DNA of 64,000 nt, taken from NCBI GenBank assembly GCA_963924565.1, contig OZ004610.1:6820001-6884000 (forward strand), read 5' to 3'. Every line of letters starts with the position of its first letter. The stretch's first letter is position 1. Positions 6,195 through 38,629 of the stretch are shown here, piece by piece. The notes under the pieces were generated by a model. That model saw nothing but the letters and a program-made list of their open reading frames with translations. It was not told the origin of the DNA and did not search any database. The DNA comes from Ascidiella aspersa. Its lineage: Eukaryota. The translations under genes and the position numbers were made by a program.

Positions 6195-6272
6195 GTATAC
6201 TATAAAGTAATAAAGACCTGAAAGGCAATTTGGTGAATACTGTTTTAAATTAATAAAAATAAAAAGAACTAC

Positions 6273-9200
6273 CTTGCACTTCTCTCCTGGCGGGAGTAAG
6301 AGGAGCCGTCCTCGTCGCTCGAACTAGTGGTGGCTCCCTCGTCCGATGCGACATCCGAAGAACAAGAGGAGGAGGAAGTGGACCTCCACTGCTCCAAGCA
6401 GTCCTCATCGAACGTCACCGACCTCCGATCGACGTAAGCCGTGACGCGTCGCTTCCCCTGATTGAAAAGGCGCCTCACAAAGGCACGAAACGCCCGAGGG
6501 AGTTTGGTCTTCTTGGAACCTCCGGATCGCAAAACGCTAGGAGCCGAGATCGACTGGCTCACTCCGTAGTGCCTCCGCGGGCTCAGGGTGGTCCTAACTC
6601 CTCTCGCGGACTCGCCAGGAGTCGGACCCGATTCTTGGTTGTCTTCCGAAGAGGGTCCGGCACCTTCTTCGCTTTCGGAAGCTTCATTTCCATCCATTCG
6701 CGATTCGCTGGCACTGTTTCGCATTGATCTTTGCGAGCTTTCACCCTTTTTCAGTCCTCTGCCGTCCGGCTGCGAGTTCTGCGAAGTTGCACTCCCGGAT
6801 TCGGACGGCCTCTTCCCGCTATGCACAGACTGCTTTGACGACCTCCGCGACGACTTGGCCCCCGATTCCTTGCTTCCCGACGCGCTCAGCTCATTGGAAC
6901 TCCTTTGCGACCCAGAAGCGCCCGGCTTTTCATCAGCCAGGCTTTCGTCAACCATCTCGTCAACCTTGCTGGTCATTTCGTCCAACAGAAGCCGCACACT
7001 TTCATCTATAGCGGAATCAAACTCGTTCAGGCCTTTCTCCTGAATTCGAGATGTGAAAGAGGCACTGCCTCCAGGCTGCTGAAGGGTGGTGATATCTCTG
7101 ATGCTCGTGTTCAGCGTAGAGACCAGGAACTGTTTTTTCCTTGCGCCGTTAGCCACCTTTAAGTCTGACGTGCCTGCTCTGCTGTTGCTCGACCTCGCCA
7201 CGCCAGGCTCTACTTGCTTATCACCTTCGCTCTCTAATTGTGGCGAGTTGGCAGCGATGTATCCCTCGATGACCACGATACGGCGACCGCCAATGATGCA
7301 GCCCGTCGCGAACATTCCAGCGCCGTACTCTACAGCAGTGCGGCGAATTTCGACGTCCAGGTAGCGTTCTAGCTGCAACTCGGAAGCAATATCCAGCCAT
7401 GAGGACTCTATTGAATCGTTGACGAGGAACTTTGCGACGCCGTTGAAGAGCGCGCTCTTCCATAGCTCGTTGCTGGTGGCTCGCACCTTGCCTTCGACTT
7501 TTGAAGGGAAAAGCCGTTTGAACATTGTTCCGCCTTCGTACATGGCAAAGTCGACGAGGCGCCCGGCCATTGGTTCGATCGCCGCTTTTTCGTAAAGCGA
7601 CGGGAAGAAGGGCTTGAAGTTCTGGCGGAGTCGCGGGCACTTGCGGCAGCTCGACGCCCAGTCGTTCACCTCCTTTGCCGCGTTGCGCTCTTTTACAATG
7701 TCCTTGACGTCCCTGAGGGTCACCAGCCTCTCCCGCTGCTCACCTACGTCGTCCTCTTCCGTTTTCACGTCCACGTCCTCCATCTTCTTGTACTTGAGCG
7801 TCGGCTTGGTGGACGGCCCGCCCAACTTCGCTTCCATCTCATCTTGATCCTTATCCGCCTCCTCCCTGCTCCGGAAGCGGAGGCTGCGCATCAGGAGCCC
7901 GTCTCCGCGAAGATAGAGCATGGCGGCTTCGGTTCGAGTCCTGGACTTTCTATCGTCTTCTTTATTGTCGCCTCGCCTCCTGACTTCGTTGTCGTCGGAG
8001 TCGATAACGGATGGCATCTGCTCATCTAGACTCCTCTCCCTTTCATCCGGATCCCTCCTGCTCCACCACGTGCTTACCTGAGAGAGGTTAGTGGAGGAGT
8101 AGTCCATCGCTCCTAGTCGATGCAGGCCTGGAGGAAAGCGCGGCGCCTCTTCTCTTTGCTGTTCTCCGAAAGAGTCCAACCTCCGGCTGGATGCCGACGA
8201 GATCGAGTACATCATTTTTTCGCTGTCGTTGTCGTCCGTAGTGCTTGGGTTTTGTCCGTGTAATTTCACGGCTGACTGGACTGGCTTTTCAAGCAGCAGT
8301 TTGCTGACAGTTTTGCCCCCTTGCTTCGCTCGGTTCTCATTGGAATGCGAAATCGACAGATCAGGGTTGCTGATCGAGCCCGGAAACCCTGGAACCTCAC
8401 TTGTTTTTCGCTCTAGTTCTCCCGACAGCGACGACTTTGACCTTACCGTCTTTGTAGCGGGGTGAGACGATGATCTGATGCTACTTTTATTCGAGGTTTG
8501 AGCAGTTTGCCCACTCTTGGCTTGCGACTGGGACGATTTTGACTTTGAGGTTGCGGCTACGGACGAGGCTGAAGTCTTAGTTGACTTTAAGCTAGTTTTC
8601 TGGGAGCTGGCTGCGCTTCTCTTACTCTTACTTTCGGACTGTTTGTCAGTGTCGAGCGAACCGGAAGACTTCAACTTGGTTGTGATGCTTTTCACCGAGC
8701 CTTTTCCAGATGGCAATGAAGACTGGCGCGTCTCGCTTCTTTCGGATAAAACGCTGCTTTTCTGACTGCCACTGCCGGGCGCGGACAGCTGCGCGGAGCC
8801 GGGAGAGTCGTACAAGCGCGTATCTTCAACGCGATTCGAAGCATTGGTCCCTGACCACATTGATGCTTTGCTCGACTCAATATCTTCAACTCCCTCTGGT
8901 TGGTCTTCTGCTTCGGATTGGTTCAGCGACTCCGAGCCGCTATCTTGCTGTTCTTCGTTTTCGCTTTGGTCGGACGCAAGTTTCGAGTCGTACTCGTCCG
9001 GCGCGACCTCATCGTATTCGCCGCTGACGGTTGCGCTTTCCTCCTGCGCGGCGTCGTACGATTGCTCCGAACGCGGACCAGTTCTAATGGCCGGCACTGA
9101 AGGTGGTTTTCGGCTTGTTCGCCTTGCAGGAACAGAGCCTTGCCTTTTGGCCTTTGTCGGTTGCTTTGGCTCGGAGTCCCTGGTCCTTCCAATTCGTATC

Positions 9201-11090
9201 TTCGAACGCGAGTGTTCGCGGAGTGAGGGCACTTGGCTCTTGGCTGAAAGCGACTGGTCTTTGGCTGAAAATGACTGACTCATGCCTGAGAGCGAGCGTT
9301 TCTTGGCTGAAAACGACTGAGTCTTGGCTGGAGTTAGCTGTGCTGAATGCTCTTTTAACGATTTCCGGAGGTCGCGCTCGCTCAGAGCCGAGTAAATGCG
9401 GTGCTGATTGCAAGACACCTGCGACAGACTCCTGGCCATCTCGCGCATCTCATTTGTGCAAGTCGGTCGGTCGTAGATCGGCAGGGAGTGGGACATATCG
9501 GCCGAGAGCGCTGGACGCAGCGGCCCGGCGCTGTGCCGAAGTCGGAATCTGGCGGCAACGGCTTCGCGACTTTCCGACGCAGTGTCTTCGGACACTTTCG
9601 GAAGCGCGAACGTGACGTGGCGTGGCGACAAAGCCGTTGGTTCTGGGGTTGAAACGTTTGCCGCCTTAGCTTTGGAGCGACGACCGATGCAGACTAGCGA
9701 GCGACGATTTGAAGAAAGCTTATTGTGGTTGATCCAAAGCGCTCCTTGCTTGGCGGGCTTCTGTTTTTTCGCAGGCGTTGCCTTTTTTGTGCTTTTGCCA
9801 TCGCTTCTGCCGGCGCTGACAGTCGGAAAGCCGCTGTAGGAGGTTACCATAGACGTAGATTGCTCTTCTTCTGACACCTCCTCCTCTTCGCTCGCGTCAC
9901 TTGAGGAAATCGAGTCTTCCTCACTTGACATGTCCACGTTTATATCCGACTCATCGCTCAAGGAAGTCACATTGACATCAGAGTCTTCGCTTGACGAGTC
10001 CACTGTAACATCCGCGCCCTTACTTAAAGAGGAGTCGATTTTGGTATCCGAATATTTGCTTGACGATTCTGAACTATCCTCCGAGTCTTCTTCGCTCGAG
10101 GAATCTTCGTCATCGTCATCATAAAAAGCCAGATCCTCCATCTGAGCCACTTCGTCGTAAATGTGTTCTTCCTCTCTGTTTCGACCCTTTCCAATTTCGA
10201 CCCAGCCGCTCTCCGTTTGCGACAGAGAAAAGGAGCTGCTGTCGCTGTACTGCGACCAACTATCGCTTCCGGCGCAGTAATCATTGTCGAGTGCTACAAG
10301 AGACGATCGCAGGTCAGGACGCGATCCCATCTTGAGCTTGCGCATCCGTTCTTTGATGTGACGCGTCTCCCTTCTGGTTTTCCGCTCGTCGGCGAGGTCC
10401 TCCAGGGTGAAGTCCCCGCGCGCGTACTTGGCCATCGGACCTTTCAAACCAGCAGCCTCCCTTCGCGCAGCCTTCCAGTGGTCCAGCATCTCGTCGGTGT
10501 CCATCTGGATGCCGACTCGCATTCGTCTGTGCTTGTCGCTCATTTTGAGCTGCGCTCGGAACTCGTTTACCTTGGCGCCGGGAAGCCGCATCAAAAACCT
10601 CCCCTTGGCCGGCTCTTTCCCTAAGGCGCGGGGATCGGTGACTGGGCGCCTCCGTCCGATCACGAGGGCATCCGACGAGTTCCACTTACTCATATCGATG
10701 CCGCTGTCCTCTGAGGACGATTCAGAAGCGCGCTCAGCTCCGTAAGGCTCTGCGTTCTCCTCGTACGCGTTCGTCTTCTTAACGTCGAACATCTCCTTCA
10801 CTTGAACGCTCATCCTCCGGAATCGGTTCGCGAATCGCTCGCGGAACGTCTGCGGGTTGAACTCTTCATAAACGTGCTCTTTAGCCTGAATGACCTCGCC
10901 GTCCGCTCCTGGCATGCGAAGCTCCGAGTGGTGGATCATGTCAGACGGGATCGACATCGCGGAGTCGCCGGAGCCAATCCACCGAGACTTTCCTCCTTTA
11001 CCGTCCTCCGATTCCTGTCCATTATCATCTTCCTCCTCCACGCCATGCCACTCACCGTCGTCACGCAATTTGCCCAACACCACCGCTTTT
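6273..11090 (-). CDS. Giant uncharacterised protein, exon 6 (4818 nt; Ser/acidic/basic low-complexity, YDEV motifs, possible folded segment about 7250-7655)
   Basis: 1604-aa ORF; acceptor gttttcgcag at 11091-11093; donor AG|GTAGTT; phase 2 to 2. Confidence 0.88.
9232..9330 (-). repeat. Coding 21-bp degenerate repeat (QSFSAK-like heptapeptides)
   Basis: Recurrent (C/T)TTGGCTGAAA; translation KTQSFSAKKRSLSGMSQSFSAKDQSLSAK. Confidence 0.7.
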
Positions 11091-11863
11091 CTGCGAAAAC
11101 GGAGATAAAGTTTGGGGCTGATTGGCTAGTTTTTTCAACCTGGGCCCAGAATTAAAATGTTGCCAAGGGCCGGAAAAGATTGTCATCTTAGGAAAACAAG
11201 GTCATTTATTGTTCTACAATTTGCCTAACACCACCGCTTTCCTGCGTAAATGAAAATACGTTTAAGGGCTAATCGGCTGTAAAAAAATTTGTCTGAAAAA
11301 AAACAAGGTCATTAAATGGTATTTTTACCACTTCCTACATTTCACTTATTTCAGTTCAATATTTTTTTTTTCAATAAATTGTCGTTTGCTGCGATTCAAA
11401 TTCGGACAACTAAAGATCTTGATGCTGCTGTAAATTTAAATCTAAATCCGGATGCGGTTTCTCAATTACATAGAACTGGTTTGTTTGTTTGCGACTTTAT
11501 GCAACCATTAGCATTTTTTGCTTGATTGTTACCACCCGGAGTGTATTTAAAACTGATAGCCATATTTACCTTTATTTAGCGACTATATATAATTGTAATA
11601 TTTATCCCTGAAAACATTGTTAGAGATTTAATTCAAAAACGTGGCTTTAGAAAGATATTGCCTATTCGTTTGTTGTTAGTTAAAAATAAGAGTTTTTTAC
11701 TTATTTAGCCGGAGTGTGTGACTTAAATACCAGAAACAGACATACTACACTCCTTTTAGCGATTGCATGTAAATCTTTTTCGCACCAAAATGGTATTTTG
11801 AAGCAAGAAATGGAGCACTCCGCAAAATAGCATTTGGCAATATACAACATTAAAGGTAATTAC

Positions 11864-12303
11864 TTGTAGGTGCCGTCCGGGTTGTTGACTTTTCCGATCA
11901 GGACAATGTGGTCATTCACGTCCACGTCGCGCCCGACCGTGGTCCTGTACTTGGGCTTCTTGAAGCTCACACCGCTCTTCTTGCGTCCCTTGATCTTGCT
12001 CTTCCACGAGAAACTTCCTTTGCCGAGACTGTCCTCTTTTCCGCTTTCCCCGCCCTCCAAACCACTCGCTCTCCCTTCACCAAAGGCGCTGTTCTGAGAA
12101 ACCTGGTTATTGTTGTTCCATGCTTCTCCAGGACCTTGAAATGCTCCTGGACCTTGAAATCCTCCAGGAACCTGATTTCCCCCAGGACCTTGAAGTCCTC
12201 CATGACCTTGATTTCCTCCTGGACCTTGATTTCCTCCAGGACCTTGAAGTCTCTCTGCGCCTTCGTGCAGTTCGGAAGTGCCTTGTTTCCATATGGAGTT
12301 GTT
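11864..12303 (-). CDS. Giant uncharacterised protein, exon 5 (QGPGG hexapeptide repeats)
   Basis: Acceptor ccatcgcag, donor AA|GTAATT, 440 nt, phase 0 to 2. Translates without stops as NNSIWKQG...LQGPGGNQGPGG...NPDGTYK. Confidence 0.75.
12127..12249 (-). repeat. Coding 18-bp tandem repeat x7 (xQGPGG)
   Basis: Repeated TCCTCC(A/T)GGACCTTGA(A/T) units on the plus strand. Confidence 0.9.
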
Positions 12304-15886: not shown

Positions 15887-16712
15887 CTGAGTATAGTGTT
15901 GAACCAGCATTGATTTGACTCGTGTCGGCGCTAGAGACACCTTTTTTAGTTTTTATTTCCTTATCTGGATGCTTACTGGAGCTAGGGTTCGTACCTGATT
16001 TGCTGTCGGCAGTTTTCTTTCCACAAGACGCAGACTGAGCTGCATGGGTGTGGCTAGAAACATTTTTCCCAGCACTTTCGTCGATACTTGTAATTTCACA
16101 TTGTTGAACATTGCTTTTCTTTCGAGAAAGCCGAGAGTGCTGTTCAGCCGCTGCCCTAGATGCGTCCAAACCGGCACTTCTATGGCTGCCAAAGATTCCC
16201 GAAAGCTGCAGTAAACTTGCGTCCATGGCAGATTTGCTGAGCATTGCGGAAAGCTGAGACCGCGACTTTTCAACATGTTGGTCAGAGTTGGGGTCCGTGC
16301 CCAGTCTCCCTGGGCTACCTTTTTGTCCATGAAAACGAGAATGTGATGCGCCCGGGACCCTTGAAACTGATTTTGCGATACTGCTTAAGTCGCCGGTGTA
16401 TCCGCTGTGTTCTCCAGCTGTGGCAAGTGAAGACGCCTTTCCAGCACTGCTACCAGCAACTGATTTGGCCACCGAAGCTTTCGGCGCGAAATTAACTCGC
16501 GCTTGATAGCGTTCAGCAAAGTCGCGCGCCTTTCTGGCCTTGCGTTTTCTGCTGGCCGACCTGGGCGTCAAGTGAGCCAGTCCGGAATAAGATGACGACG
16601 ATGAAGAGTGGACGACATCGAGAAATGCTGACGAGCGCCTTCTGTGCGTTTTACGGCGGAACGGCAGGCTCTTCCCGCTTTTTCCCGCCGTCTTTTTACC
16701 GCCTTCTGGCAT
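15887..16712 (-). CDS. Giant uncharacterised low-complexity protein, coding exon 1 (MPEGGKKTAGK..., basic, Ser/Ala-rich, RVNF motif)
   Basis: ATG at 16712 opens a 282-aa ORF. Donor CAG|GTGGGC after 15887 (phase 1) is the one that fits the next exon; the alternative GA|GTAACT at 15868 gives an immediate stop. Confidence 0.7.
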
Positions 16713-25228: not shown

Positions 25229-26276
25229 CTACACGTTCTCGACCGTTTCGATGAAAGTCGAGCGGCTGTAGGTTCCCTGCTCCTTCAGTTGCTGGTTTTG
25301 ATTGTTTCCCAGGAGCTTCTCACTGACGTCGCGCGCAGACGAGCTGCAGCTGTCCGTGCACGTGTTGACGCGACATACAGCGTCGCCGCGCCTGCACTTG
25401 GGCGCCTGAGGCGACGCGCGACGTCCGCGGCCCCAAGGCGAGCTCCAGACCGCCGAGATGCGAACGCGGGCTCGACGCTCGAGCCGCGGCCCCGATTTGG
25501 CGCAATACACAACTCGAATGTCCTTGCGGATCTTCTCGCGCGAGAAACTGTACAGCGCCGGGTTGATAGTGCACGAAGCGACGCCCAGAACGAGACTCCA
25601 AAGGAAGGCAGCGTTCCACGCCGCGCCGCCGCTTTCAACTGGCGTTTCAAGGCGCAAACCGCGCACTGATGTATCTTTAAAGCTGCATGTTGCCGCACAG
25701 AGGCGCCGCTCGTCCGGCCCGGCCAAGTACTTGGCGACTGGAAGTGCGTGAAACGGCGTCCAGCACGTTACAAAGGTGAGCAGAATGAGGACGACCATCT
25801 TGCGCAGGTGCCGCGTCCGACGGCGCTTCTCGCGTATCTTGGCCGCAACCATTCGCTTCAGCGCAAGCACAACGGTTATGGAGAGAGCCACGGACGCAAA
25901 GTCGGTCTTGGCTTCGGCGTGATGCTCTTCCGTTCCGCCGGAATCCGGCTCCTGTTTTCCCGCGGCGCAGATTAAACCGTTTGCCGCCTTGTCGTCGACC
26001 TTTACGCCGCTGAGCTTAGGCGAAGGCGAAGGCTCGGCCTGCTTGACTTGCACAATTTGCCGCGTTTTATTGTTGTTAGCGCGCTCGATCCGCGGCGAGC
26101 TTTCCGATATCGTGGTGATGACGGTCGCGTCCTTGTCTTCTCCTCCTGCTCTTGCTCCTACTCCATCTTCTCCTCTGCTCTTCATCCATCCTCCGCAGCA
26201 CTTGAGCACGAGGCTCTTCTTCTGCTGGTCGCGCGTCATCTTGAGCGAGTGCTGCTCCCGGATCTTTTTGGCCTGT
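25229..26276 (-). CDS. GPR22: GPR22-like GPCR exon 4 (long ICL3, TM6 CWTP, TM7 NPALY, C-tail); total about 628 aa
   Basis: SITVVLALKRMV resembles GPR22 SVSVIIALRRAV; TFVTCWTP; INPALYSFSREK resembles HPLLYAFTRQK. Acceptor tttctcgcag; stop TAG at 25229-25231. Confidence 0.9.
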
Positions 26277-29200
26277 CTGCGAGAAAGCGAAAAACGATTA
26301 GGAGTTGTTGCTAATTTGCTGTTTGTTAAATTTGCTCAAGGGAAATTGGCTGATTTGTTTTTTAAAATAGAGTCCATTGACCCCTTGGGGTACGTGAACT
26401 AGTGTTAAGGGTCCATGAGGGTTTAATTAAAATATTAGTGAATTATTGATAAAGTTTAAATTAAAATGACTTGATTGAAAAAAGTTTTATCACTGAAAAT
26501 ATTTGAACTCTGCATCTTTTTCGGAACGAAAACAGCAGATTTCCCATGTCTACTTGTTTTAATAAAGTAAGTTAATGACGTCAGCTCTAAAAAATGTCAT
26601 GGCGACCCTGGTCGACGAAAAGGAAAAAAATTGTTTAGGGCCCCGCGTCAAAAAAAAGTTCAAGAGCTTAGGATTTGCGCTGATCTGATATTTAGGTTTC
26701 AAATTTGACAAGAACGGCTATTAACAAAGGTTTGTGTTAAATTACCGTTTTTTTTTAATCTGATGTTCCTGCCCCAGTGCTGATCAGTGCGCATTAAACC
26801 GGGCGCGCGAGAAAGCGAATTGATCGCAGCCTTTCGCCGCAAACGCGTCGCAAAATTTAGTTGGCCGATTTTCGTTCAACGCCAAACCGACGTTAGTGAA
26901 ACCGCGCGAATTCGCTCAATTCTTGGCGAGCTGTTCCCGTCAACCAACCACTGTCTTTTTTGGCGGTTTGTGTCGCCCCCTCAAACCGTCATCGATTTTC
27001 TGACCGGGCTTGGATTTTTTTTCGATCATTGGCGGTGTAAAAGCAAGGACGACCCCATTGAGACCTCGCAGGTCAAGTTAGCAAGTTACATGTCGGTCTG
27101 GGTAACCTCTCGTGTATACTTGAACTTTAACACAGACCTGGGTAAAATACGACCCTCGGGCCCTGTCCAGGCCACCAAACAGTTTAATCCGGCTTTTTTT
27201 TTCTAGTCAATAAAACCCTGGACTGACATAAGCTATTTCAACTCACAATATTTCTTTTGCTTTCTTGAAAAAGATCTGCACTTCATATTATGTTTATTTT
27301 GAATCCTATTTAGACAAGGCCCTCTAAGACATTTTCTTGTTCTCATGCCGACCTTTGTCAAATATTCAAAAATAATTGCTCCTGTCAAAAACATTTGCCC
27401 ATCCATGCACTACAGGGTGAAAATGGGGTAGGGGTTGCGGCCGTAAGGGGCTTAGGGCAAAAACAATTCCCGTGTCAGACATTTCGCTGGCCCGTCTGCA
27501 TGTTTACCTGCCTTAAAAACAAGGCCGCCTCCCAAGGGATATTTGCATGACCCGGTCCTGTCAATCGCGTTTCTTTTTGTGTGGCCAAGGCGGCCAAGCA
27601 AATGCCGTGACGGTATTTCACCCTTAAATTTGTCTGGTTGGAAAACAACCCTCGTGTGTAGGACAGACACGTTCATTTGTTAGCGATAAGTTTAAAAATT
27701 TGATTAAAACTGTGTTACACGTTTTTTTTAAATGATGGTTCGCCTCAGGCCGCTTTATTATCGTTTCTTCGTGAAAGTACGAATTAATGCTTTGACGTTT
27801 TGTCTGAATTTCAGCAGCTATAAAAATCTCGTAGGCTAGCTATAGATGGCATAAATTTTAGAATTTCTGAAGTACTGGAAGATTATTCGGGAAGGAAAGG
27901 GCAGACCAAAAACTCGTGGTATAGATTTTAAATATTGTACCCACTTTTCTTTCGATCAAAAAAAAAAAAAAATAAATCACAATGACAGCGAAGACAGTAG
28001 AAACCATGTTATTTCCATCATGTAACAGCCGGATATATCATCCTTTTATTTTGTTTAGGTAGGACATAGCAGCAAACACAATAACAAATTCTTATCACGA
28101 AATGTAGCCTTTAAATGTCGCCCGACGCGTTAAGAGTGCCACTAAAGGCGACGACGCTTTACGCGGTAAAAAAGCGACCTTTTAAACTTTGAAGCGCCGA
28201 GTGCGGTTGCCGTAAAAACACTTATACAGATTCGGTAATAAAGACTGAGCTAATAATAATAATATCTCTTTTAATCGCGCACGGAAATAAGTTGCTTGTA
28301 CGTTATGCGGTAAAATCACAAGCATCTAACAATAGATTCGTGCGTCGGTTCGCCTTAAACTCCCAATTTAACCCGATGCAAGCTTGCGTTTTACGCGAGC
28401 AGGAATCCTATCGCGCGCCAGAATAATCTTTCAATGGCTGCGGTGTTGCGACCGCGTTGTTTCGTAAGGCATTCTCGCACGCCGAAATGAATAATTGACG
28501 ACGCCTTCGCCGCTCGGTACCTCGTGATTGACGCTGCATTGCCAAGTGCCAAGGGCGTATACGGCCTGCACACTTGGGCTTGTTATTCGCCCAGTCAATC
28601 TTCATCCTGCAATCTGCATGTCCGTGGTTCCACCCCGACATTTTGCACTTTGGAAGTTTTTTTTAATTATACCGGAGTTGTTTTTTTTGAACTATAATTT
28701 TTAATTTTTTTATGCTTTGATTTTGAAACGATTTACAAGCCTATAGGCAATGGTTGTCTAATATTTATTTCACGTACAAAAACACTAGGTTTCTTAGACA
28801 CATGTTTTTTTAACTTTTTGGTTTCACTTATGAAAAAACACAAGTTTTTTGCTCTTTTAAAAATATAATGAAAGCCCGCATATTTTTATTAAAGCAGGAG
28901 ATTTTATGCCTAAAAGTGAAAGGTTTTCAATGTTGTACCTTTCTTACGCTGCACAGTTTTATAGATTACTTTTCTTATAACGCAAATACTACGCTTTCTA
29001 GACGGAATTCGAAAAGGAGTGAAATCAACTTTGTAGAAACATACGTCAAACAACTTTTTTTTATGTCAGTTTTCGTCTTGTGCAATACAGCTTGTGATGC
29101 GAAATTAACGTAAATATTCATTTGTGCCTCTTTAAAATAGTGTAAGAAAAATCAAATATTAAACCAGTTGACTCGAAAATGTAACTCAAAAGGCGTTTGA

Positions 29201-29994
29201 TAAATCGCCTGGGCAATTACTGTACAGTTCTCGTCACCAATAGATAATAATACTTTGTTAAATTTGGGTCCTGTAAAGTTTTAGAAAAAAATCCTAAATA
29301 CTGGTATTCAATTTTCAGTAACACTAACGGTAATAAGTGGTTTTATTCGTTCTTATCGCCGCCCTATCATCTTGGTTCCGTGCGTTACCTGAACACCATT
29401 GTATAGCCAAGGAGCGTATATCTGATGGTAATTCGATATTTCACGATGCATGCCGGCAAAACGGTGTGCCGAAGCCAAGCTCAGAAAATAAATGTGCTTT
29501 TACTGGCAAACTTTTCTCTATACGCAATAACTAATAAGGCAGTGGTTCTGAAACGCGGACCTCTAAAAAATCAATTTAATTTTTTTACTAGGGTTGTCAT
29601 GATTTTTTTAGAGATCATGACTAAAAAAAGTGTATTTAAGATATCTGTTGTTTTCGGCCCCGCAAATGTGTAATAATCTTAAGTACATTTGAAAAGAAGG
29701 CCACTCCCCCCAAAAAAAATATTTTTGTGTGCGAAATATGCTGTAAGATTTTGTTTAGGCCTTCGTGGGCCCCCGTAAAAATTGGCAACGTAGCCCAAGT
29801 AGCCCACAGACGCCAGTTTAAGAACCCCTTTAAGGACATCTTGTTTAAGCCGGCTCCAAATTTTTAGGAACTCATTAGTGAAAAATCTCGTACTTCTGTC
29901 GTTTGTGTTATTCAGCATGCAGCCAAAGGTAGCAAATAGGGGAATTAAACCATTTTTTTAAAGATTAACACACAAACTACTTGATTTAACTTAC

Positions 29995-30077
29995 TTGTTG
30001 CTTCCCCGCTGCACGGACTGCAAGATCCTAAGGTACACCGAGATTATGATGATGTTGCCGATCACAAAAGTGCTGAC
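29995..30077 (-). CDS. GPR22: GPR22-like GPCR exon 3 (TM5: VSTFVIGNIIIISVYLRILQSVQRGSN)
   Basis: Acceptor ttttttcacag, donor AA|GTAAGT, 83 nt; Y..IL end-of-TM5 pattern; not in the ORF track. Confidence 0.88.
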
Positions 30078-30633
30078 CTGTGAAAAAAGTTTTAGTTTAA
30101 CTGAAAAAAAAACTTTACGTGATTTAGACGCAAACCTTACAGAACTGCGAAACCTCCGGCGAAATTATGATGTGATTTGGAAAGTTTCGAGATAACCCAG
30201 TGCCGTAAGGCTTTTTGCCTGCATTTTGCAGGTTTGTGAAGATTTGCAAAATTGTTTCAAAAAACATAATTTTCCAATAAAGGTTTGGTTGCGTTTGTTA
30301 TAGTTGACTATTTGGTAGTCTTGTAGAAAAATCCCTTTTATTGGCGTTGTCGTAAAAGTTTGACTGTCAAATATATTATATCAAAGGAGTTTGGATATAG
30401 CATTAGTTGGTTGAAGAAAAAACACTTTTTTGTTCAGCTATGACATTAGTTTGATTATGTCGCAACATTCACTCCTTGTTTTCTCGTACTTTATCAACAC
30501 CAACCGTTCACTGGGTTATTAGAACCACTGAAAAATCGCCGTTACACGATTGGCCGAAACCACGTGACGAGGGGCTTTCAAGCGTGACGCCGCCCTTTTC
30601 AAACCAAAACAAAAACAAAAAGTCGTGTCGAAC

Positions 30634-31134
30634 CTGGAAAGCGATCTGCAGCGACAAGTCGAACTTGTTGAGCGAGCACAGGTCCTTGGCGCACCTCGCC
30701 GCGCACGTGACGTTGTCCAAACCAATGACGTCACCAGAATTGATGACGTCACCCAGCCTGGATCGACTCTTGTCAGCCAGCGCCGCCACAGGCACCACCT
30801 GCCATTCCTCGCTTGCCGCTGTATCGTAGTTGAACATAAGCAAGAGAGGAGCTACTGTGGCTAGTACAGAGACACTCCACACTATGGCGATGGCGTAGGC
30901 GGTTCTGCCCTTGACGAAAAATCGCTTCAGGGCTCGCAGGCTCACGTCGGCCCGGTCCAGGGCCAGCAGCGCCGTCCCGGCCACGCTTGCAATGGCGCAG
31001 AAAATGAGCAGGCCACGATTTAGGAAGCAAAGGTTGTTGGCCTGTTGCGCCGATCCGAAGCTGAGCAGTTGCGTGACCAGGGTAATGGGCAAGGCTACGC
31101 CGCACAGGATAATATCGATCACAGCCAGGTTAAC
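30634..31134 (-). CDS. GPR22: GPR22-like GPCR exon 2 (TM2-TM4, ECL2)
   Basis: VNLAVIDIILC..LP, LDRADVSL (GPR22 has LDRYDISV), TM4 Trp; 501 nt, phase 0 to 0, AG/GT boundaries. Confidence 0.9.
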
Positions 31135-34100
31135 CTGCGTTTGAAGATAGACGAGTTGTTAGGGTTTGCGCGCAATGTTTTGGTGCTATTATGTGATATT
31201 TTGGGGCGGTATGATCCTGGCTCAATGACCTGTCATTAATAAGCTTGCGAATAGTTATGTCCTTCGGTGCCATTTTTGAGTTCTCAAATGATAAGTATAG
31301 AGGTGTACAATGTTTTTTAAATATTTTTTTGGCCCCGTTACTATACTCTTTTATAGTGTGCAGAAATTTGTTGACAAAACAATGGCTTCGTCAAAGCAGT
31401 TTATATCTTATTTAAAAATAAAATCCACTCACAAAGAACATAGTTAAGGCAAGTACAATGTCAAGGCACCATTTGCTCAGCGACCATTCCTTACACAATT
31501 AAATTAGTCATAAAACACTTACACTGCAATGCTGAAGTTTAAAGAAATGTCCTTTTTTTCGGGGATTTTCTGAGAGCTGCTATATGTTTTAAAATATTTA
31601 CAAGACATTCCCCAGTGTTCTGCGTATTCCAGTCGATACTAGCGTCTCCGGTATTAGCAAGGTCGTGATTACAAAGAAATTAAAGCTTTTACTAGATGTC
31701 TTTCCTAGGCCATATGCTTGATGATTGCGTTTAAAATCCATACTGACAAAATGCTGATCAAGGTCGACCCAGAGGTTTATAAAAATAATCAAAAAGGCAT
31801 CATCCTTTACACTATCAGGGTATGGAATGATGGATTATTATATCGATTGTTTGCGTTTGGAGGTATATGCAAAAGAGGGCAGTAGTTTTCGACTACAGAG
31901 CCACATCAGAGATTGCTGCGTCGGGAGTTTAACAGCTTTACCAATGCGCACGCAGGCTCAGGATTTTCCCAGGATCTCCCAAACGAATCACTCTGTGGCC
32001 TAGTTTATTTCAGTAGAACGTTTGGCCAGCACCCTCCACGTTCAACAATCACGAGCAGAAAATATAACTATGTAGTCGATGTAATGATACTCATGTTACT
32101 TTAAGTTGCGCTGTGGTTTTTGCGTTTCTTGTTAGTTGCTCCCAGTCAGGTTCATGTTTGCATGGTACAATATTTGCCTTTTTGCGTTATCGGCGTTATT
32201 TGAAGAAGTAATGTGCAACTCAGCTGTGCTTTTTATTAGTTTATTTTTTTGTTTTATTTTATTTATTGCGCGACCCCCTGTAAGTTCACGTTCTTGAAAA
32301 CTCTGCACTTTTGGGCTGTTGGGCCTTTCGAAGTTCTCAAGGAGCTAAACATAAATAATCAAAATAATCATTTACTTAATCAAAGACAGTTCCATGACTC
32401 ACATCAAAATAATGACAAGCTGCCTTATTTTTAGATCGCGGCACACGCGATGCTGCTAGAGTTGTTTTGACACGAACTTGAGAGTGGAAGATTAATTAAG
32501 CGACGAACGCAGTTTATCGATTTTCGTCCAAGGCCGTTCTCCACTTCAACTTACTATACTATTCGCGAAAACCTTGCAAAACGTCGATAAATCCTTGTTG
32601 AAGTCAATCGCCGTAAAAATGATCTTATCGGCCTACTGGATTCTGAAATCTGCCCGACTGTATTCCCGAATTTGTGGTAGGCCTATAAAGCACACCCATC
32701 AATATTCGTAACTTGCCGGCGTTATCTCTGGGGCTGTACTATGTCACAAATCTATTATCGCCTGGAAGAAATCAATCACGCCCAAATGGCCACTGCGCGG
32801 CGCTATATCTCACAAATTGTTCGTGTAGTTTTTTTCAGGAATCCAAAATCGAGGCGCATCGAGGCAGCTGCCAGATTCATTTGTATATGCATCGAAAAGA
32901 AAATTTGCGAATCAATTCTTTTTGTATCAGCGGCAATAATCGAAAAGGTCCGTTTTGTTTTCGTAATGTTTGCACTGATTCCTATTCGTCACGTTTGAGT
33001 AAGATGGCGTAATAAATTGCCCCATTTTCCTTGGGCAAAGCGGTCTAATGATAAATTATATCGCAAAAGCGTAATTAAAAAATGTAGCTGGTGTATTCTA
33101 TTGTTCCCGAAATCTGCAATCAGTCTTGGAAATCTTGAAACCAAATTTCGCCGAGCGTTCTACGCATATTCAACTCCATATGAGGCTGTTCTCCTTATTG
33201 GTTTTATATCGTGCTCATAAAACAAGAACAAATACAGTTTATTCTTGGTTATAGTTGCCTGTTTCCCATAATTGTCACAATTATTATGCCGTATAATCAG
33301 GTGAGATTATTAGATACTCACGGATGGACATTTGTATAATATTAGCTCTATAACGTTGGTCATGTGGACGCGAAACTATCCTTAAATGTAAAATTACGGT
33401 TAAATACAGAGTTCGTCTAACGTGTACAATAATTTCTATTGACGAAATCGTCTTTGCAACCCCTACACCTAAAATTCAGCGCGTGTTTTGCCACCCTTAT
33501 AAGCCTGTACCTGTTCTCGATCGCTATTTCCGTGTCGTATGCAACTATACGCGCTCCAAGCCCTGTTATCCTATACCAAAGGCAGAATGGTATTTTGGTA
33601 TGACCGCAATGCAACAACCGTATTTGTTTTTCGCCCCTTTTTACGAGCAGAGCAGAAGTTCTGTGTTCCGTCAAGGCGATTTCGCAACCGGCTTTTCCGC
33701 TTAAAAAAAACCCATCGCACATAGTCCCGGGAAAAAGTTTTTCAAACCAGTATGACGTAAGGCGAATATTGGAAGCGATGCGCGCTTTCCACTTTAACGA
33801 GTTTTTTTCTTCGTTGGCCAATCGCTGCGCAAATATTGACCTTGCCACAGGCCGAGACAGCTGACGTCCATAAGAGTGAGTGGGCGATTGGCTGGGCCGG
33901 CACCCTATTTTACCGCCTTTCTTTCAAGGAAATATAGTGGGACGGCCTGTTGTGGGACGGCCTGTTTTAACGCTGAAAGTGGCCAAAGTTTTTAGATTTT
34001 GTTTCGCAACTATTTGTTGGCGCCGTCCGATCAATATCGAACAAAGGCCAAAACAGCGCCGGTCGCCGCAGTTTCTTTGTCGAGGAATGTTACAGACGCA

Positions 34101-36107
34101 ATTCTACGTCGCACCTAATTCGCGAAAATCGAATTGGATGACCGAGTTATTAAAATTGTTTTTCTTCGTTGACGCAGTTTTGGTTTACGTGCGCCACGCC
34201 GGTACCGTAGTATTTGCCAGTCTTTGTCAGCCTAAGGATTACCATATAAAAATCACTATGGAACGATTCTTGTATAATTTTTAATACTGGCCTTGAGCAA
34301 TAATTTTGCAAACTTATAAGCTCACATTCGAAATTTTTAGCATGGTTAAAAGAAATGTTATAGTATCTCGTAATAAAAAAGCAGGTCCACATAAAATATT
34401 ACATTTAAGAACTGTTGCATTGCATTAAAATAACCAAGCAATGGCTGATTACCTGCAACCCTTTTACATGTAGTCTATACGTACCTTATTTAAAAGTTTG
34501 ACAATACCGTAAACAAAAATAGTTAACAAGATTTACGTTTGAGCTATATTAACCCCAAACAACTTGGAATGACATGATCAGCCTTGACCACTGTAATGAC
34601 AGACTGACCTGCACCACATTATGTATGTGATTTTTAAAATTAGAAGCACATCCGTTCAAAACGTTCCAAACGTGTTTAGCTTTCTGTATGTGTTCAAAAG
34701 TCATCGAAAAAACGATCAGCGTCAATTTGTAAAGTTTCTCTTGACACTGCACCGGATAAAAGCACCGGGAAATTTCCAATTTACGCCGTGTTTCGCGTTA
34801 ACTCGATAGCGCTGAATATCGACCAATTGCCCACTCTCCTATAGTAATTGTGAGACTGTGAACAATTTCGTGGGGATCGCTATCAATAAAAAAACACTCC
34901 GATTCCGGCCAAATTGAATTCATCGTTTGACGCGGCGACGGCATTATTGTCTTTACGTCATCAAACCGCAATTATTGGCGTCACAAAGACACCAAACGAA
35001 TGGCCTGTCGGCTGAATGAAACCTCGGAATTCCCAAGGCGCTCGCTCAACTTTAGCCTATATAAACTTCGGCTTATTTCTGTTCATCATTGCTGGTTTGC
35101 CAAGAGGCGAGGGGCGCCGTCTCATCGACCCGATTGCAAATTACGTCCAGGCTCAATCCCGCCGCAATAAATATTAATCGTGCTAACGAACGAAACTCCC
35201 CCGATCTCGTTAACGCCTTTTGCATTGTAGAAATTGGAATCGAGTGCGGGTCGCCGGAGTTCGTGAAACCAACAACAAAAACAATTCGGTCAAATGAGAT
35301 TCCGCAAATCAAATGTATTTTGTTATCAGTTGGAATTTTCTACGTTTGGTCAGGGAGATACCAGCATCGATCGACCGATTTGTATGCGACAGTTGAAAAC
35401 AAATGGTGACAGTCTAGTTGGTCAAATTATGTCTGGCCGGTGTTTGACGCTGCGCGTATTTTTTCCCGAACTTTCGTGGACAATTTTTTTCAGCATCGAT
35501 CGAGCTATTTCATAAGTGACATTTAAAACCAAATGGTGGTCTATGGGTAAAATAAATGTCTAGCCGTGTTAGACGGTGCGCGTATTTTCCGGAAATTTCG
35601 CGGACAATTTTTTTGTGTGTAACGTAAATGCTTCTGATGTAGCTTGACAAATAAACAGGATACGATGAATCTGCATCCAGCGACAACCATCAACGGCAGT
35701 CGTTTCTACCAATATCTCTACGTTGAGTTTTTGAACATTTTAGTCTAAAATGTACGTCCTTTTTTTTCGGTATAATTATAATTATTCATATATCTCATTA
35801 GATTTCGAAAAATTTTGTTCATTTTTTTGTTTAACTCTGACGAGCTTAATTGTATCCCGCTTTGTTCTGGTACTTTTGTCTTGGTTTCAAACAACTGCCT
35901 CCTTATGCGGGGTATGCCAGAGTTGTCCCAAAGCAAACGAACGTAATCAAACTTAAACTGGAAGTCAAACACATACCCGGCGAAGATAGTTCGCAATTTT
36001 TTATCGCCTTATCAATATGGCGCGCTGTATATACACTCCAGTACTCCCAAGCTGGATAGTTTTTAATTGTGCTCTGTGGCAGTAATGCGAACTACTTACG
36101 TCTAATA

Positions 36108-36446
36108 CAGGGGTTCTTAAACTTTTTTTACCGCGGAGCCCCAATTTTTTTTTTTGCTTTGCATGGACCCCGGAAGCAGGAATACTCCAAAATGACGTCA
36201 TAAATTGACGTCACAATACAAATTGACTTCATAACTCTGTTATTTCGGTGCGAAAAATGTGAAATTTAAATGGAGTCTAACTATACATTCAGTGCAAAAC
36301 CGTTTAGTTTTAATTAAAGTGTTTTCTTTGAAAAATTAATTACTTCTTAAGTATACACTAGTTCTTTAATTAGATCTTCATGGACCCCCTAAAACTAGTT
36401 CACAGACCCCCCAAGGGGTCCATGGACCCCAGTTTAAGAACCCCTG
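36108..36446. mobile_element. hAT (Charlie/Buster-like) MITE
   Basis: TIRs CAGGGGTTCTTAAAC / GTTTAAGAACCCCTG; TSD GTCTAATA/GTCTAATC. Confidence 0.88.
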
Positions 36447-37574
36447 GTCTAATCGAAGCCAAAATAGCTTGGCGCTGTTTAATTGCAAAACCAAGGCGTT
36501 GCGTTCTTTGGCTAATCGAGCGGACTTTCCTTTTGCGGCGAGTTGAAACGCGAATTGTGCGTTCTCATTAAAGACGGGTTGGGGCCGGGTTAAAAATAAT
36601 ATCAAAGTGCGTTCATTTTTCGTAGTACATTAACTCAATTTATTTTGTCCTGGCAGAAGGCAGAATTGTTTTTAAATGACGATTAAAATTACTGCGAAAA
36701 TTCGCCTTTTCAAATATGCACCAGTGTGACGTTTAGCAGTTTTGTTAATCTGCCAAACGGTAGAAAACAGGTTAGAACATTTTCAACATTGGTCGTCATG
36801 TCGTGCTTTGTTAAACCGCGGTTTAACCTGATCTTTCAGCTCGCTAATAATATCACACAGCGGCCGACCTTGTCCCGCGGTTCAGCGCAAAACACGAATC
36901 AACGGTCCGCGCAGTAATGGAAAAAATCGTATACGAGCGTTTCGATGAGTTAGCGCATTTGACGAACCGCTGCGCAAAGTCGGTTCGCATTTCGCGAAAC
37001 AAGCGAGCGACGGCTGCTGGCATTCAGGCCAGAAATGCGATCCCCTTGGCTTTGTGCTCATGTTCCTATCAGACGACTTCGAGCTAAGTCGAGACGACAG
37101 CAGAGCGTGCGCTGGCCCATCGATTGAGCGTGACATCGCCAAAACGCAACGTAAACATGCAAGCAGTTGCGCCGATGACGGGGGCCGCTGTCGGAACGAT
37201 TTGCACCCGAAAATTGTTTTTCGGTGCTTTTGTTGCTTGTCGCTCGCGTTAGTCGCTTTGTTTTCCGTGTGTATAGCTTTTTGTGACTCGCTCGCTAAAT
37301 GCGCGGGAAACAGATAGACGGTTTTTATGGACGCGTAGGTGCGCCAACATTTTTGGTGAAACTTCTCCGCCAGCAGCCTTTTGTTTTGTAAAACTTTTAT
37401 TTACCACTGCCGCCCTGCAAAGCAACGAATTGGTTACTTTTTCGGGCGCAAAGTCGATTAGCTTTTAATAATGAACCAGAGAAACCACGATTTAATTTGT
37501 TTTTTATTCCCCCTTGCCTATAACCTTATTTCGCCATTTAGCTCACACTAGAATACTAAATCAATTAATAGATT

Positions 37575-37625
37575 GACCGTGCAGTGGTTCAGAGGTCGTG
37601 AGTTCAAATCTCACCGCGGGCAAGT
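37575..37625 (+). repeat. tRNA-derived SINE-head-like remnant
   Basis: A-box-like GCAGTGGT and B-box-like GAGTTCAAATCTC spaced too closely for a full cloverleaf; a similar remnant lies at about 4340-4410. Confidence 0.4.
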
Positions 37626-37656
37626 TCGACAAATCTATGCGCTCAGTGCGACTTAC

Positions 37657-37911
37657 CGTGAACACGTTGCCGACGTTCTCAAGCAGGCTGCGCTTGCGAA
37701 AGTAAACCAGCACCACGATGACGTTGCACAGCAAGCCCGCGAGCGCCTCCAGTGCCAGGAACACGATAGGAACGAGCTCAGCTGGCGTCAGTCGATCGTC
37801 CTTGTTAAAATCCAGGTCTCCCTCGCTTATGTTAAGGCCGCTGCTTTGGGCGATTCCTTCGATTCTGCTGCTTGCAGTGCAGTTCACGCATCTCGCGTAG
37901 GCCGTGGGCAT
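37657..37911 (-). CDS. GPR22: GPR22-like class A GPCR, coding exon 1 (N-terminus, TM1, ICL1)
   Basis: First in-frame ATG at 37911; N-glycosylation sequons NCT and NIS. FLALEALAGLLCNVIVVLVYFRKRSLLENVGNVFT resembles GPR22 FLMLEIVLGLGSNLTVLVLYCMKSNLINSVSNIIT. Donor ACG|GTAAGT. Confidence 0.85.
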
Positions 37912-38629
37912 ATCCTTTTTGCCGCTCGCCGGTGCTTGTGCCCTTTCCTCTTGCGTAGACGCGCTCTGCACGTCACTCTTGCTCTTTGAGCTTTCTACTT
38001 TTTACAGTCGCTTTTAGATTTCTGTTTGCTATCTTTGTCGCCTGCAAAACATTGGCAAAAACGCATAGGTTTGATTTTCGTTGCGCTAAAGTAGAGCTCT
38101 CATTTGCAAAACAGTGTGAGGCTGCATTACCCTTTGCATTCTCTGCGAATTTGGTTGTGGACACATAGCTTGTAGACTGGCGTTATGTCTGTATTTTAAA
38201 TTTTCAAAAAGCTATCCATATCCACATGAAATCAACAATCCTTTCTGTGTATTTTATTTTTCCTGTTCGTCAATCTTTCTATTCTCCTTAAACAACAGTA
38301 AAACGCGCGGGAAATGACATTAGAGGGGTGCGAAGCAGTAAAGGTACACCGCCGTTTTGATGGTCGAAGTCACACGTCATAAGTTGTTTTACACGCCAGT
38401 TTAGGAACGGGATTTTTAAGGTGCGTTTTTATTGCGTTCGGTGCAAACACCAACACATGCCAAAATATTATGACGTAATAAGCGCCGTGTCGTGCCTATG
38501 CTGGCATTGCATAGTCTTGTTTTTTATATATCTTGAACAAATTATCCAAGTATGTAACGGCCATATTCGACAGCAGAAAAGTCTAGCGCAGCTAGTAATT
38601 TAGGTCAAACACTATTTATAGATGTTAAA

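Follow-up and report, generated by a model that had tools for sequence, protein, structure and literature searches.

Gene model and transcription

The window, the whole 64,000-nt stretch of Ascidiella aspersa DNA that was analysed (GCA_963924565.1, contig OZ004610.1, 6,820,001-6,884,000), carries on its minus strand a single-copy, transcribed gene that we model with 12 exons and a product of 3,991 aa (Table 1). One frame of 1,618 codons (6269-11125) contains all five tyrosine motifs reported in the first-pass annotation, whose spans for two of them are slightly corrected: EEEHIYDEVAQ occupies 10142-10174 (given as 10145-10174) and GEYDEVAP 8999-9022 (given as 9002-9022). RNA from the same species (run X4) covers 8600-11150 with 131 reads, nearly all on one strand and with depth in 25 of 30 bins, and the donor joint of exon 6 (6273/4745) is spliced in 12 reads. 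Upstream, the joints 15887/15093 and 12919/12303 are seen in 10 and 2 reads, respectively, while the remaining joints before exon 6 are predicted from the open frame and homology. Exons 9-12 are predicted from GT-AG sites, the fully open 3,991-aa frame and a collinear match to Styela P0004. Between 8600 and 11150 there are 11 non-synonymous and 6 synonymous within-species variants, none of them inside the five motifs. A run labelled as another organism (X3) was 99% alike at low depth and yielded no ortholog.

Table 1. Features of the gene, in window positions unless a contig is named
Feature	Position	Strand	Description
Exons 1-5	16712-15887, 15093-14853, 14139-13931, 13045-12918, 12303-11864	-	Model, ATG at 16712
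Exon 6	6273..11090	-	4,818 nt, model aa 615-2220; open frame that holds the five motifs together with the conserved core
EHVYEEF	10859..10879	-	Tyr689; not conserved (Tyr in 0/8 homologs, rank 250/686)
EEEHIYDEVAQ	10142..10174	-	Tyr926; conserved Nck-type SH2 ligand (predicted)
IYDRP	9464..9478	-	Tyr1154; YDxP not conserved (Tyr in 5/9 homologs, Pro+3 in 0/9)
GEYDEVAPD	8996..9022	-	Tyr1307; second Nck-type site (predicted), loosely placed
LYDSP	8801..8815	-	Tyr1375; possible third site, column-aligned in 0/9 homologs
Family-defining core	7229..8266	-	DYSSTN, YLRGDGLL and FxPFFPxL[YF]E blocks; invariant columns; predicted long helices
Exons 7-8	4745-4634, 3565-811	-	Joint 4633/3563 in 6 RNA reads
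Exons 9-12 (predicted)	G000:C4 6819428-6819235, 6816586-6814750, 6813557-6813407, 6812149-6811885	-	Past the window start

Homologs and family

A homolog search returned nine homologs with E-values of 1e-24 to 1e-5; a tenth match, P0011, was left out as an unrelated repeat protein. Among the nine are Ciona intestinalis LOC100180955 and Styela clava LOC120327567, which, judged by collinear blocks and the single copy in Ascidiella, are orthologs of the gene. Both are annotated as “uncharacterized”, and the Ciona model (P0002) begins downstream of Y926. No Pfam family was matched by any exon of the gene or by four of the homologs. An AF2 model of the core from 10 sequences had low confidence (pLDDT 46.5, pTM 0.20), searches of the ESM Atlas with the core and the tail gave low or implausible matches only, and a word-indexed search for long homologs yielded none among 621 candidates. 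In a metagenome scan two loci were found among 556 stretches, both of them the P0003 gene and both stopping short of the tail. This giant low-complexity protein likely represents a family restricted to tunicates, the closest invertebrate relatives of vertebrates. It also contains other repeated short motifs.

Conservation and enrichment of the tyrosine motifs

HIYDEV, centred on Y926, ranks first in conservation among 686 six-residue windows of a region with a mean identity of 16%. Its tyrosine is present in 7 of the 8 homologs that cover the column, 5 of which read YDE[VI], and the motif is represented in each of the three groups into which the core tree divides. Two homologs (P0007 and P0008) carry YHEV, one lacks the site, and phenylalanine never replaces the tyrosine among the aligned sequences. 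Y1307 is placed more loosely (rank 337/686, Tyr in the same column in 4/9 homologs); in Ciona, GYDTVAGD follows the same IRTGP anchor. For LYDSP, visual inspection finds a collinear Y-D site in three homologs, HIYDKT in Ciona, NIYDDP in Styela and HYDQP in P0006, and Tyr1154 of IYDRP belongs to a longer block that runs on as E-M-x-x-M. The expectation that the motifs persist as islands in orthologs is thus borne out at Y926 and loosely at Y1307, and fails for EHVYEEF and for the proline of IYDRP.

YDEV occurs twice in 693 aa against 0.005-0.014 expected, and 0-1 of 5,000 shuffles per mode reach two, for a pattern picked after seeing the sequence. When the Nck-like pattern is relaxed, local shuffling no longer gives a significant excess (P 0.07-0.09). 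Pooled over the nine homologs, YD[ED][VI] occurs 10 times against 0.6 expected and the broader class Y[DE][DE][VIP] 16 times against 1.8, counts that none of 600 shuffles reaches in either case. The context of this class surrounds 19 of 593 tyrosines versus 13 of 4,232 instances of seven control residues, and F[DE][DE][VIP] is rare (2/686). Homologs hold between 0 and 6 sites of the class: P0007 and P0010 have none, P0003 has five in 174 aa and Styela three in 128 aa. The extra Styela sites read YEEI in P0004; in an older record from Styela, one of them is YDEI. The region had been described as otherwise poor in tyrosine; with 16 Tyr in 693 aa (2.3%) against 67 in the 3,991 aa of the whole model (1.7%) it is not, and 11 of the 16 lie outside the motifs named.

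Y926 as a candidate Nck docking site

The consensus reported for the Nck SH2 domain in PMC2661883 is pYDxV[AYST]x[DEC]. Y1307 fits it in full, as does a single site in each of Ciona, Styela and P0006; Y926 agrees with it except at position +6. The Tir peptide EEHIpYDEVAADP is reported to bind the Nck SH2 domain at 40-70 nM (PMC4238058, PMC10755736), and its first nine residues are EEHIYDEVA, rightly named in the first-pass annotation as the Y474 site of EPEC Tir. The features of this high-affinity ligand (H-2, hydrophobic -1, D+1, E+2, V+3, A+4) are reproduced in three species. The genome also encodes the expected partners: a Nck gene (C4:609-610 kb, best match NCK2), a Src-family gene (C4:13.94 Mb, best matches Fyn/Yes/Src) and a WASP-type gene (C4:7.77 Mb, best matches N-WASP/WASP). 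Another candidate for Nck, L026, was rejected, its best matches being Grb2. The motif and its conservation support Y926 as a putative Nck-type phosphotyrosine docking site.

Of the multivalent Nck-SH2 array originally proposed, the putative Nck-type site at Y926 and the enrichment of its class are supported, whereas the five-site arrangement is not, as two of the five motifs are not conserved. The two YDEV sites of Ascidiella are 381 aa apart, and three or more closely spaced Nck sites are absent here (926, 1307 and possibly 1375), in contrast to P0003, where the sequence contains them. The main plausible routes to phase separation would be the clustered sites of certain homologs (P0003, Styela) or clustering on a membrane. 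The Cas/Crk reading of the YDxP strings fails, because YxxP is not enriched (2 vs. 0.5-0.7 expected here; 29 vs. 24 in the homologs) and the proline of IYDRP is not conserved; YDxP is modestly enriched in the homologs (6 vs. 1.6).

Could the phosphorylated sites have main readers other than Nck? Src-family kinases, SLP-76-type adaptors, RasGAP, PLCγ or Crk could occupy them, and the outcome would then be signalling instead of Nck-driven actin assembly. We consider this unlikely. In its favour, 45 SH2 matches occur across the genome, YHEV stands at the site in P0007 and P0008, and YEEI, the form of the extra sites in Styela P0004, is the sequence preferred by the Src SH2 domain. Moreover, PMC2908683 reports that several SH2 proteins other than Nck also recognize motifs of the pYDDV type, a pYDDV peptide of ADAP having pulled down seven SH2 proteins. 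The retention of the Nck pattern from H-2 to A+4 in three species argues for Nck, as does the YDEI of the older record at one of the extra Styela sites.

A predicted C-terminal anchor with a KASH-like tail

The last exon encodes a predicted transmembrane helix (aa 3960-3978, KD 1.97) followed by a 13-residue tail that ends in DGRPPM. One C-terminal hydrophobic helix is likewise found in all four Styela records with a full C-terminus, also with a 13-residue tail; the anchor rests on these two species, because Ciona P0002 ends without helix or tail. N-terminal hydropathy detects no signal peptide (best value 0.63). With this and the one C-terminal helix, hydropathy predicts that the motif region is cytosolic, and the full-length protein is probably not soluble, contrary to the soluble scaffold first envisaged.

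A soluble, phase-separating Nck/Crk scaffold could still arise as a short isoform, because exons 6 and 8 have in-frame stops beyond their donors: a transcript left unspliced at the end of exon 6 would run into a stop after three bases and yield a product of ~2,220 aa without the anchor. The Ciona model without a helix and the clustered sites of P0003 point the same way. The 12 reads spliced from exon 6 to exon 7, the helix in four Styela records, the presence here of just two strong sites so far apart and the lack of YxxP enrichment make such a scaffold improbable.

The tail was compared with the features of KASH peptides. The DORY rules a and b call for a single transmembrane helix and a C-terminal tail of 9-40 residues (PMC4050730), in line with the helix and tail of Ascidiella and Styela and not with the Ciona model. 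Four of the last six residues match the end of nesprin from the same genome, as is also true of the Styela tail, and none of 4,738 other ORF ends reaches four matches. Relative to the animal KASH terminus ([PATHQL]PP[QTVFILM] or PPPX), RPPM misses at one position and Styela DFPT at two, the latter fitting only the looser plant form XXPT. An aromatic residue at -7 and a hydrophobic one at -9 have been given as a KASH criterion (PMC6527376); position -7 is R here and V in Styela, and both species have I/V at -9 and F at -8. The same paper reports that initial binding does not depend on position -7. In KASH6, one of the Tyr positions is occupied by His. Pfam KASH (PF10541) does not match the tail at E up to 10, the only PF10541 match above cut-off in the genome being another gene on C6, and a PDB sequence search with the tail returned nothing at E up to 10.

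SUN genes are present: a first query found no homolog at E 1e-10, and a search with a second exon found six. A model of the tail with a SUN trimer, using SUN from Phallusia, scored 0.60 (rated weak) against 0.00 for the best control, with at least 75% of contacts agreeing between runs and a partner pLDDT of 53. Among solved complexes, 51 of 78 come up to the 0.60 mark, as do 2 of 108 mismatches; without a good prior, a pass at this level is more likely to be wrong than correct. SUN-KASH complexes have already been solved, and the model may therefore be reproducing known structures. We put the chance that SUN is bound by the tail, acting as a short and divergent KASH peptide, at about even.

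The predicted topology also bears on whether HIYDEV might act unphosphorylated, by being sulfated, by binding a non-SH2 domain or by serving as a YxxΦ signal in sorting, with the identity to Tir incidental. An acidic flank around tyrosine would suit sulfation, and YxxV would suit sorting by adaptors; the protein has other repeated short motifs as well. We find this improbable to much the same degree as a soluble scaffold: lacking a signal peptide and with its one predicted helix at the C-terminus, the protein would keep the motif on the cytosolic side, out of reach of Golgi sulfotransferases; 3,000 residues separate the motif from the membrane; and phenylalanine is never found at the Y926 column and seldom in the class context.

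Chance occurrence in an acidic low-complexity protein, suggested by the post hoc pattern, the non-significant looser pattern and the two unconserved sites, is very improbable given the independent excess in nine homologs and the top rank of Y926; it is largely refuted for Y926 and still the likely account of EHVYEEF and IYDRP. Horizontal transfer from Tir was rejected, the nine-residue match lying inside an exon shared with Styela.

Proposed mechanism

We favour, at a probability of roughly 0.55, a giant protein with a predicted tail anchor, in which cytosolic phosphorylation of the HIYDEV tyrosine likely creates a docking site for the SH2 domain of Nck. The tail-anchored topology would leave the entire motif region in the cytosol, where a Src- or Abl-type kinase could phosphorylate Y926 and probably Y1307. 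Nck would then bind, its SH3 domains bringing N-WASP and Arp2/3 to a membrane that may be the ER or the outer nuclear membrane. Valence could be tuned through local duplication of sites, giving the range seen among homologs. The conserved Nck-type motif, together with the predicted anchor and its KASH-like tail, thus makes it likely that the protein recruits actin-building machinery to a membrane inside the cell, which may be the nuclear envelope. More tentatively, and with the balance against it, the protein could be a second, tunicate-specific KASH-type protein of ~4,000 residues, whose kinase-switched Nck sites of evolvable valence nucleate N-WASP/Arp2/3 actin or Nck condensates on the nuclear envelope rather than grip existing filaments or motors.

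We found no publication naming LOC100180955 or LOC120327567, none joining KASH, outer nuclear membrane, Nck, Arp2 and tyrosine phosphorylation, and, judged by titles and abstract openings, no such protein among the ascidian KASH/LINC papers listed. The Nck SH2 ligand and the tail anchor are known parts; their combination in an undescribed giant family was not found in print. If the tail is a KASH peptide, the protein would belong to the LINC complex and be under the control of tyrosine phosphorylation. Homologs with 0-6 sites form a natural valence series for Nck clustering.

Comparison with known systems

Proteins of the p130Cas type carry YDxP arrays. The Ascidiella protein resembles them in two YDxP strings and in the modest YDxP excess of its homologs, but differs in having no tandem array, no YxxP enrichment and no conserved proline in IYDRP. 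With UNC-83, KASH5, JAW1/LRMP and the nesprins it shares a large, predicted cytoplasmic part and one C-terminal helix, and its predicted luminal tail of 13 residues is acidic and has the xPP-hydrophobic end of KASH proteins, with D-G at -5/-4 as in the nesprin of its own genome. Unlike them, it lacks both an aromatic residue at -7 and a Pfam KASH match, and its position -3 is R; its Styela counterpart ends in DFPT, no spectrin or CH domain is found by Pfam, and the protein carries predicted SH2 ligands.

The nephrin tail (HLYDEV, PLYDEV, GIYDQV) is a membrane-anchored disordered chain with YDEV-class sites, as the Ascidiella protein is predicted to be; P0003 and Styela also have clustered arrays, and the nephrin construct described in PMC4238058 has three sites within ~42 aa. 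In contrast to nephrin, the Ascidiella protein has two strong sites 381 aa apart, a predicted C-terminal anchor, and hence the opposite topology, no ectodomain and no Pfam domain, and its membrane is probably internal. With the Y474 site of EPEC Tir (PDB 2CI9, as cited in PMC10755736) it shares nine identical residues, EEHIYDEVA, in a membrane-tethered and cytosol-facing setting that is predicted for Ascidiella. No wider likeness to Tir is implied; the Ascidiella site is host-encoded within a conserved ascidian exon. Convergent evolution towards one SH2 optimum is the best reading of the shared nonamer, and nine residues common to a host protein and Tir indicate how narrow the optimum of the Nck SH2 domain is.

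Gene structure and homologs

The five tyrosine motifs lie in a minus-strand open frame of 1,618 codons, exon 6 of a giant-protein gene that is single-copy in the genome (309 Mb, 75 contigs); the window spans G000:C4:6820001-6884000. The eight in-window exons supply 3,176 open codons; with four further predicted exons, which lie past the window start, the open frame reaches its full 3,991 residues, and its introns are of the GT-AG type. In ~6% of one same-species RNA run, the exons are covered on one strand and four of the seven in-window splice joints are seen (10, 2, 12 and 6 reads). Exons 9-12 are predicted from their open reading frame and from blocks shared in order with the Styela clava protein (3,888 residues), which is collinear with our model from the N-terminus to the last residue. 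Serine makes up 17% of the exon 6 product. A Pfam search of the giant protein returned no domain, and its conserved core is predicted, at low confidence, to form long helices only.

A HMMER search of 1.84 billion representative sequences gave 10 matches, of which nine with a common core were kept and one was dropped. The two named homologs are from tunicates (Ciona intestinalis and Styela), none of the 10 matches being a named homolog from outside this group, and the remaining seven were taken as tunicate from collinearity and the tree. The latter supports two groups (Styela with P0005 and P0006; P0007-P0010) and places the query, Ciona and P0003 without resolution. The search narrows the likely range of the family to tunicates and does not prove it.

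Features of the giant-protein gene and of other loci
Feature	Location	Strand	Remarks
[VILMF]x[IVL]G[RK]	window 10646-10666, 9677-9694; six others in model		8 vs 1.1 expected; 1-6 per homolog in 9 homologs vs 0.2-1.0 expected; with IRTGP, most conserved islands after HIYDEV
IRTGP	window 9074-9088		
SPRHVTF, RRSVTF, RNRVSF	model aa 1105, 2171, 3159		RVxF-like; may be PP1 docking sites
Duplicated exon 6 acceptor sequence	window 11066-11290		copy ~150 bases upstream, in intron 5
EP-rich tract, exon 5	window 12100-12260		absent from Styela, Ciona
Low-complexity Gly/Gln/Phe-rich repeats, exon 10	L002 (same genome) 6086-4250		absent from Styela, Ciona
Rhodopsin-family GPCR gene, multi-exon	window 25229-38001	minus	upstream of giant gene; two exons match Pfam 7tm_1
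Thr-rich single-pass membrane protein	L004 (same genome) 6724-3819	minus	downstream of giant gene; mucin-like by eye
KASH gene	L008 1003-1677 (G000:C6:28.67 Mb)		ends WTDGPPPT

Conservation of the tyrosine motifs

All five motifs that the first-pass annotation had proposed as an Nck/Crk docking array are present, with coordinates 3 bases off for two; the region is not poor in tyrosine as claimed (2.3% vs. 1.7% in the rest of the protein). YDEV occurs twice in 693 residues, where shuffling gives 0.005-0.014. In the same region local shuffling gave P 0.07-0.09 for a looser Nck-like pattern, which is not significant, and there was no enrichment of YxxP.

Conservation, a check suggested by the first-pass annotation, was scored in eight homologs, leaving out the Ciona model, which starts downstream. 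Mean identity across the motif region is 16%, and HIYDEV at Y926 ranks first of 686 windows; its column reads NIYDEIP, HIYDEVA, PSYDEII, HIYDEVA, HYYHEVS, HYYHEVD and HVYDEIS in the homologs and is missing from P0010. GEYDEVA and LYDSP have collinear counterparts in several homologs, and these do not align. Pooled over nine homologs, YD[ED][VI] was observed 10 times (0.6 expected), YDxP six times (1.6) and YxxP 29 times (24), counts that are not nine independent events because the homologs share kinship; the acidic context of the motif class is Tyr-specific in this pool. Sites cluster in P0003 (five in 174 residues) and Styela (three in 128), and P0007 and P0010 have no site of this class. The Nck-type core of the array is supported by the rank of HIYDEV and the enrichment of YD[ED][VI]. 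Its size was overstated, as the EHVYEEF tyrosine is not conserved and IYDRP keeps its tyrosine in 5/9 homologs and its proline in 0/9; the Crk/YDxP reading fails on this proline and on YxxP, which is enriched neither here nor in the homologs.

Predicted membrane anchor and comparison with KASH proteins

The first-pass annotation took the protein to be soluble, which is probably wrong: residues 3960-3978 are predicted as its sole strong hydrophobic helix, followed by HEDIFRLDGRPPM and the stop, and the same C-terminal helix precedes HEEVFVVDGDFPT in Styela. Because this helix is alone and no signal peptide was found at the N-terminus, a tail anchor with cytosolic motifs is predicted. In tail anchors, net acidic tails indicate the ER or nuclear envelope rather than mitochondria; the net charges of -1 and -4 of these C-terminal tails, both acidic, point to the ER or nuclear envelope here. 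The Ciona model has a different C-terminal end, which reflects an erroneous gene model or a genuine loss.

One gene in the genome, presumably its single nesprin, matches Pfam KASH over the cut-off. The giant-protein and Styela tails each agree with its end at four of the last six positions, a level reached by 0 of 4,738 ORF ends in the genome DNA examined. Under the DORY rules for KASH proteins (PMC4050730), the tail passes on position and length and narrowly fails on the terminal pattern. According to PMC6527376, KASH tails carry an aromatic at -7 that is dispensable for initial binding, and short tails work; this aromatic is missing from the giant-protein tail. A 3:3 model of the tail with Phallusia SUN scored 0.60 (best control 0.00), with contact agreement of at least 75% and a partner pLDDT of 53. 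This mark, reached by 51/78 solved complexes and 2/108 mismatches, was rated weak, and is weaker still because SUN-KASH structures are already solved. The odds that the giant protein functions like a KASH protein are a little below even; we do not assign it to the class.

Proposed function and relation to known Nck ligands

We propose, as the most likely reading and with a probability of about 0.55, that the giant protein is a tail-anchored scaffold in which Y926, and probably Y1307, would become phosphorylated and recruit Nck, and thereby N-WASP/Arp2/3, to an internal membrane. The more specific reading of a KASH-type protein that would set off actin assembly directly on the nuclear envelope is rather unlikely. 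The genome encodes Nck, Src-family SH2, WASP-type WH1 and a SUN gene, one exon of which is 91% identical to Phallusia mammillata; together with the Ciona and Styela homologs, this likeness identifies the organism as an ascidian.

Literature searches on the orthologs, on ascidian KASH/LINC proteins and on KASH with Nck gave no description of this family or of its pairing with a KASH-like anchor. The Nck-type motif class is already known, and according to PMC2908683 YDDV-class phosphotyrosine motifs are not exclusive to Nck. Y1307 fully matches the review consensus pYDxV[AYST]x[DEC] (PMC2661883), and Ciona, Styela and P0006 do so at one site apiece. The first-pass annotation was right on the likeness of Y926 to Tir: PMC10755736 and PMC4238058 print EEHIpYDEVAADP, which is reported to bind Nck SH2 at 70 and 40 nM, alongside the nephrin sites HLYDEV, PLYDEV and GIYDQV.
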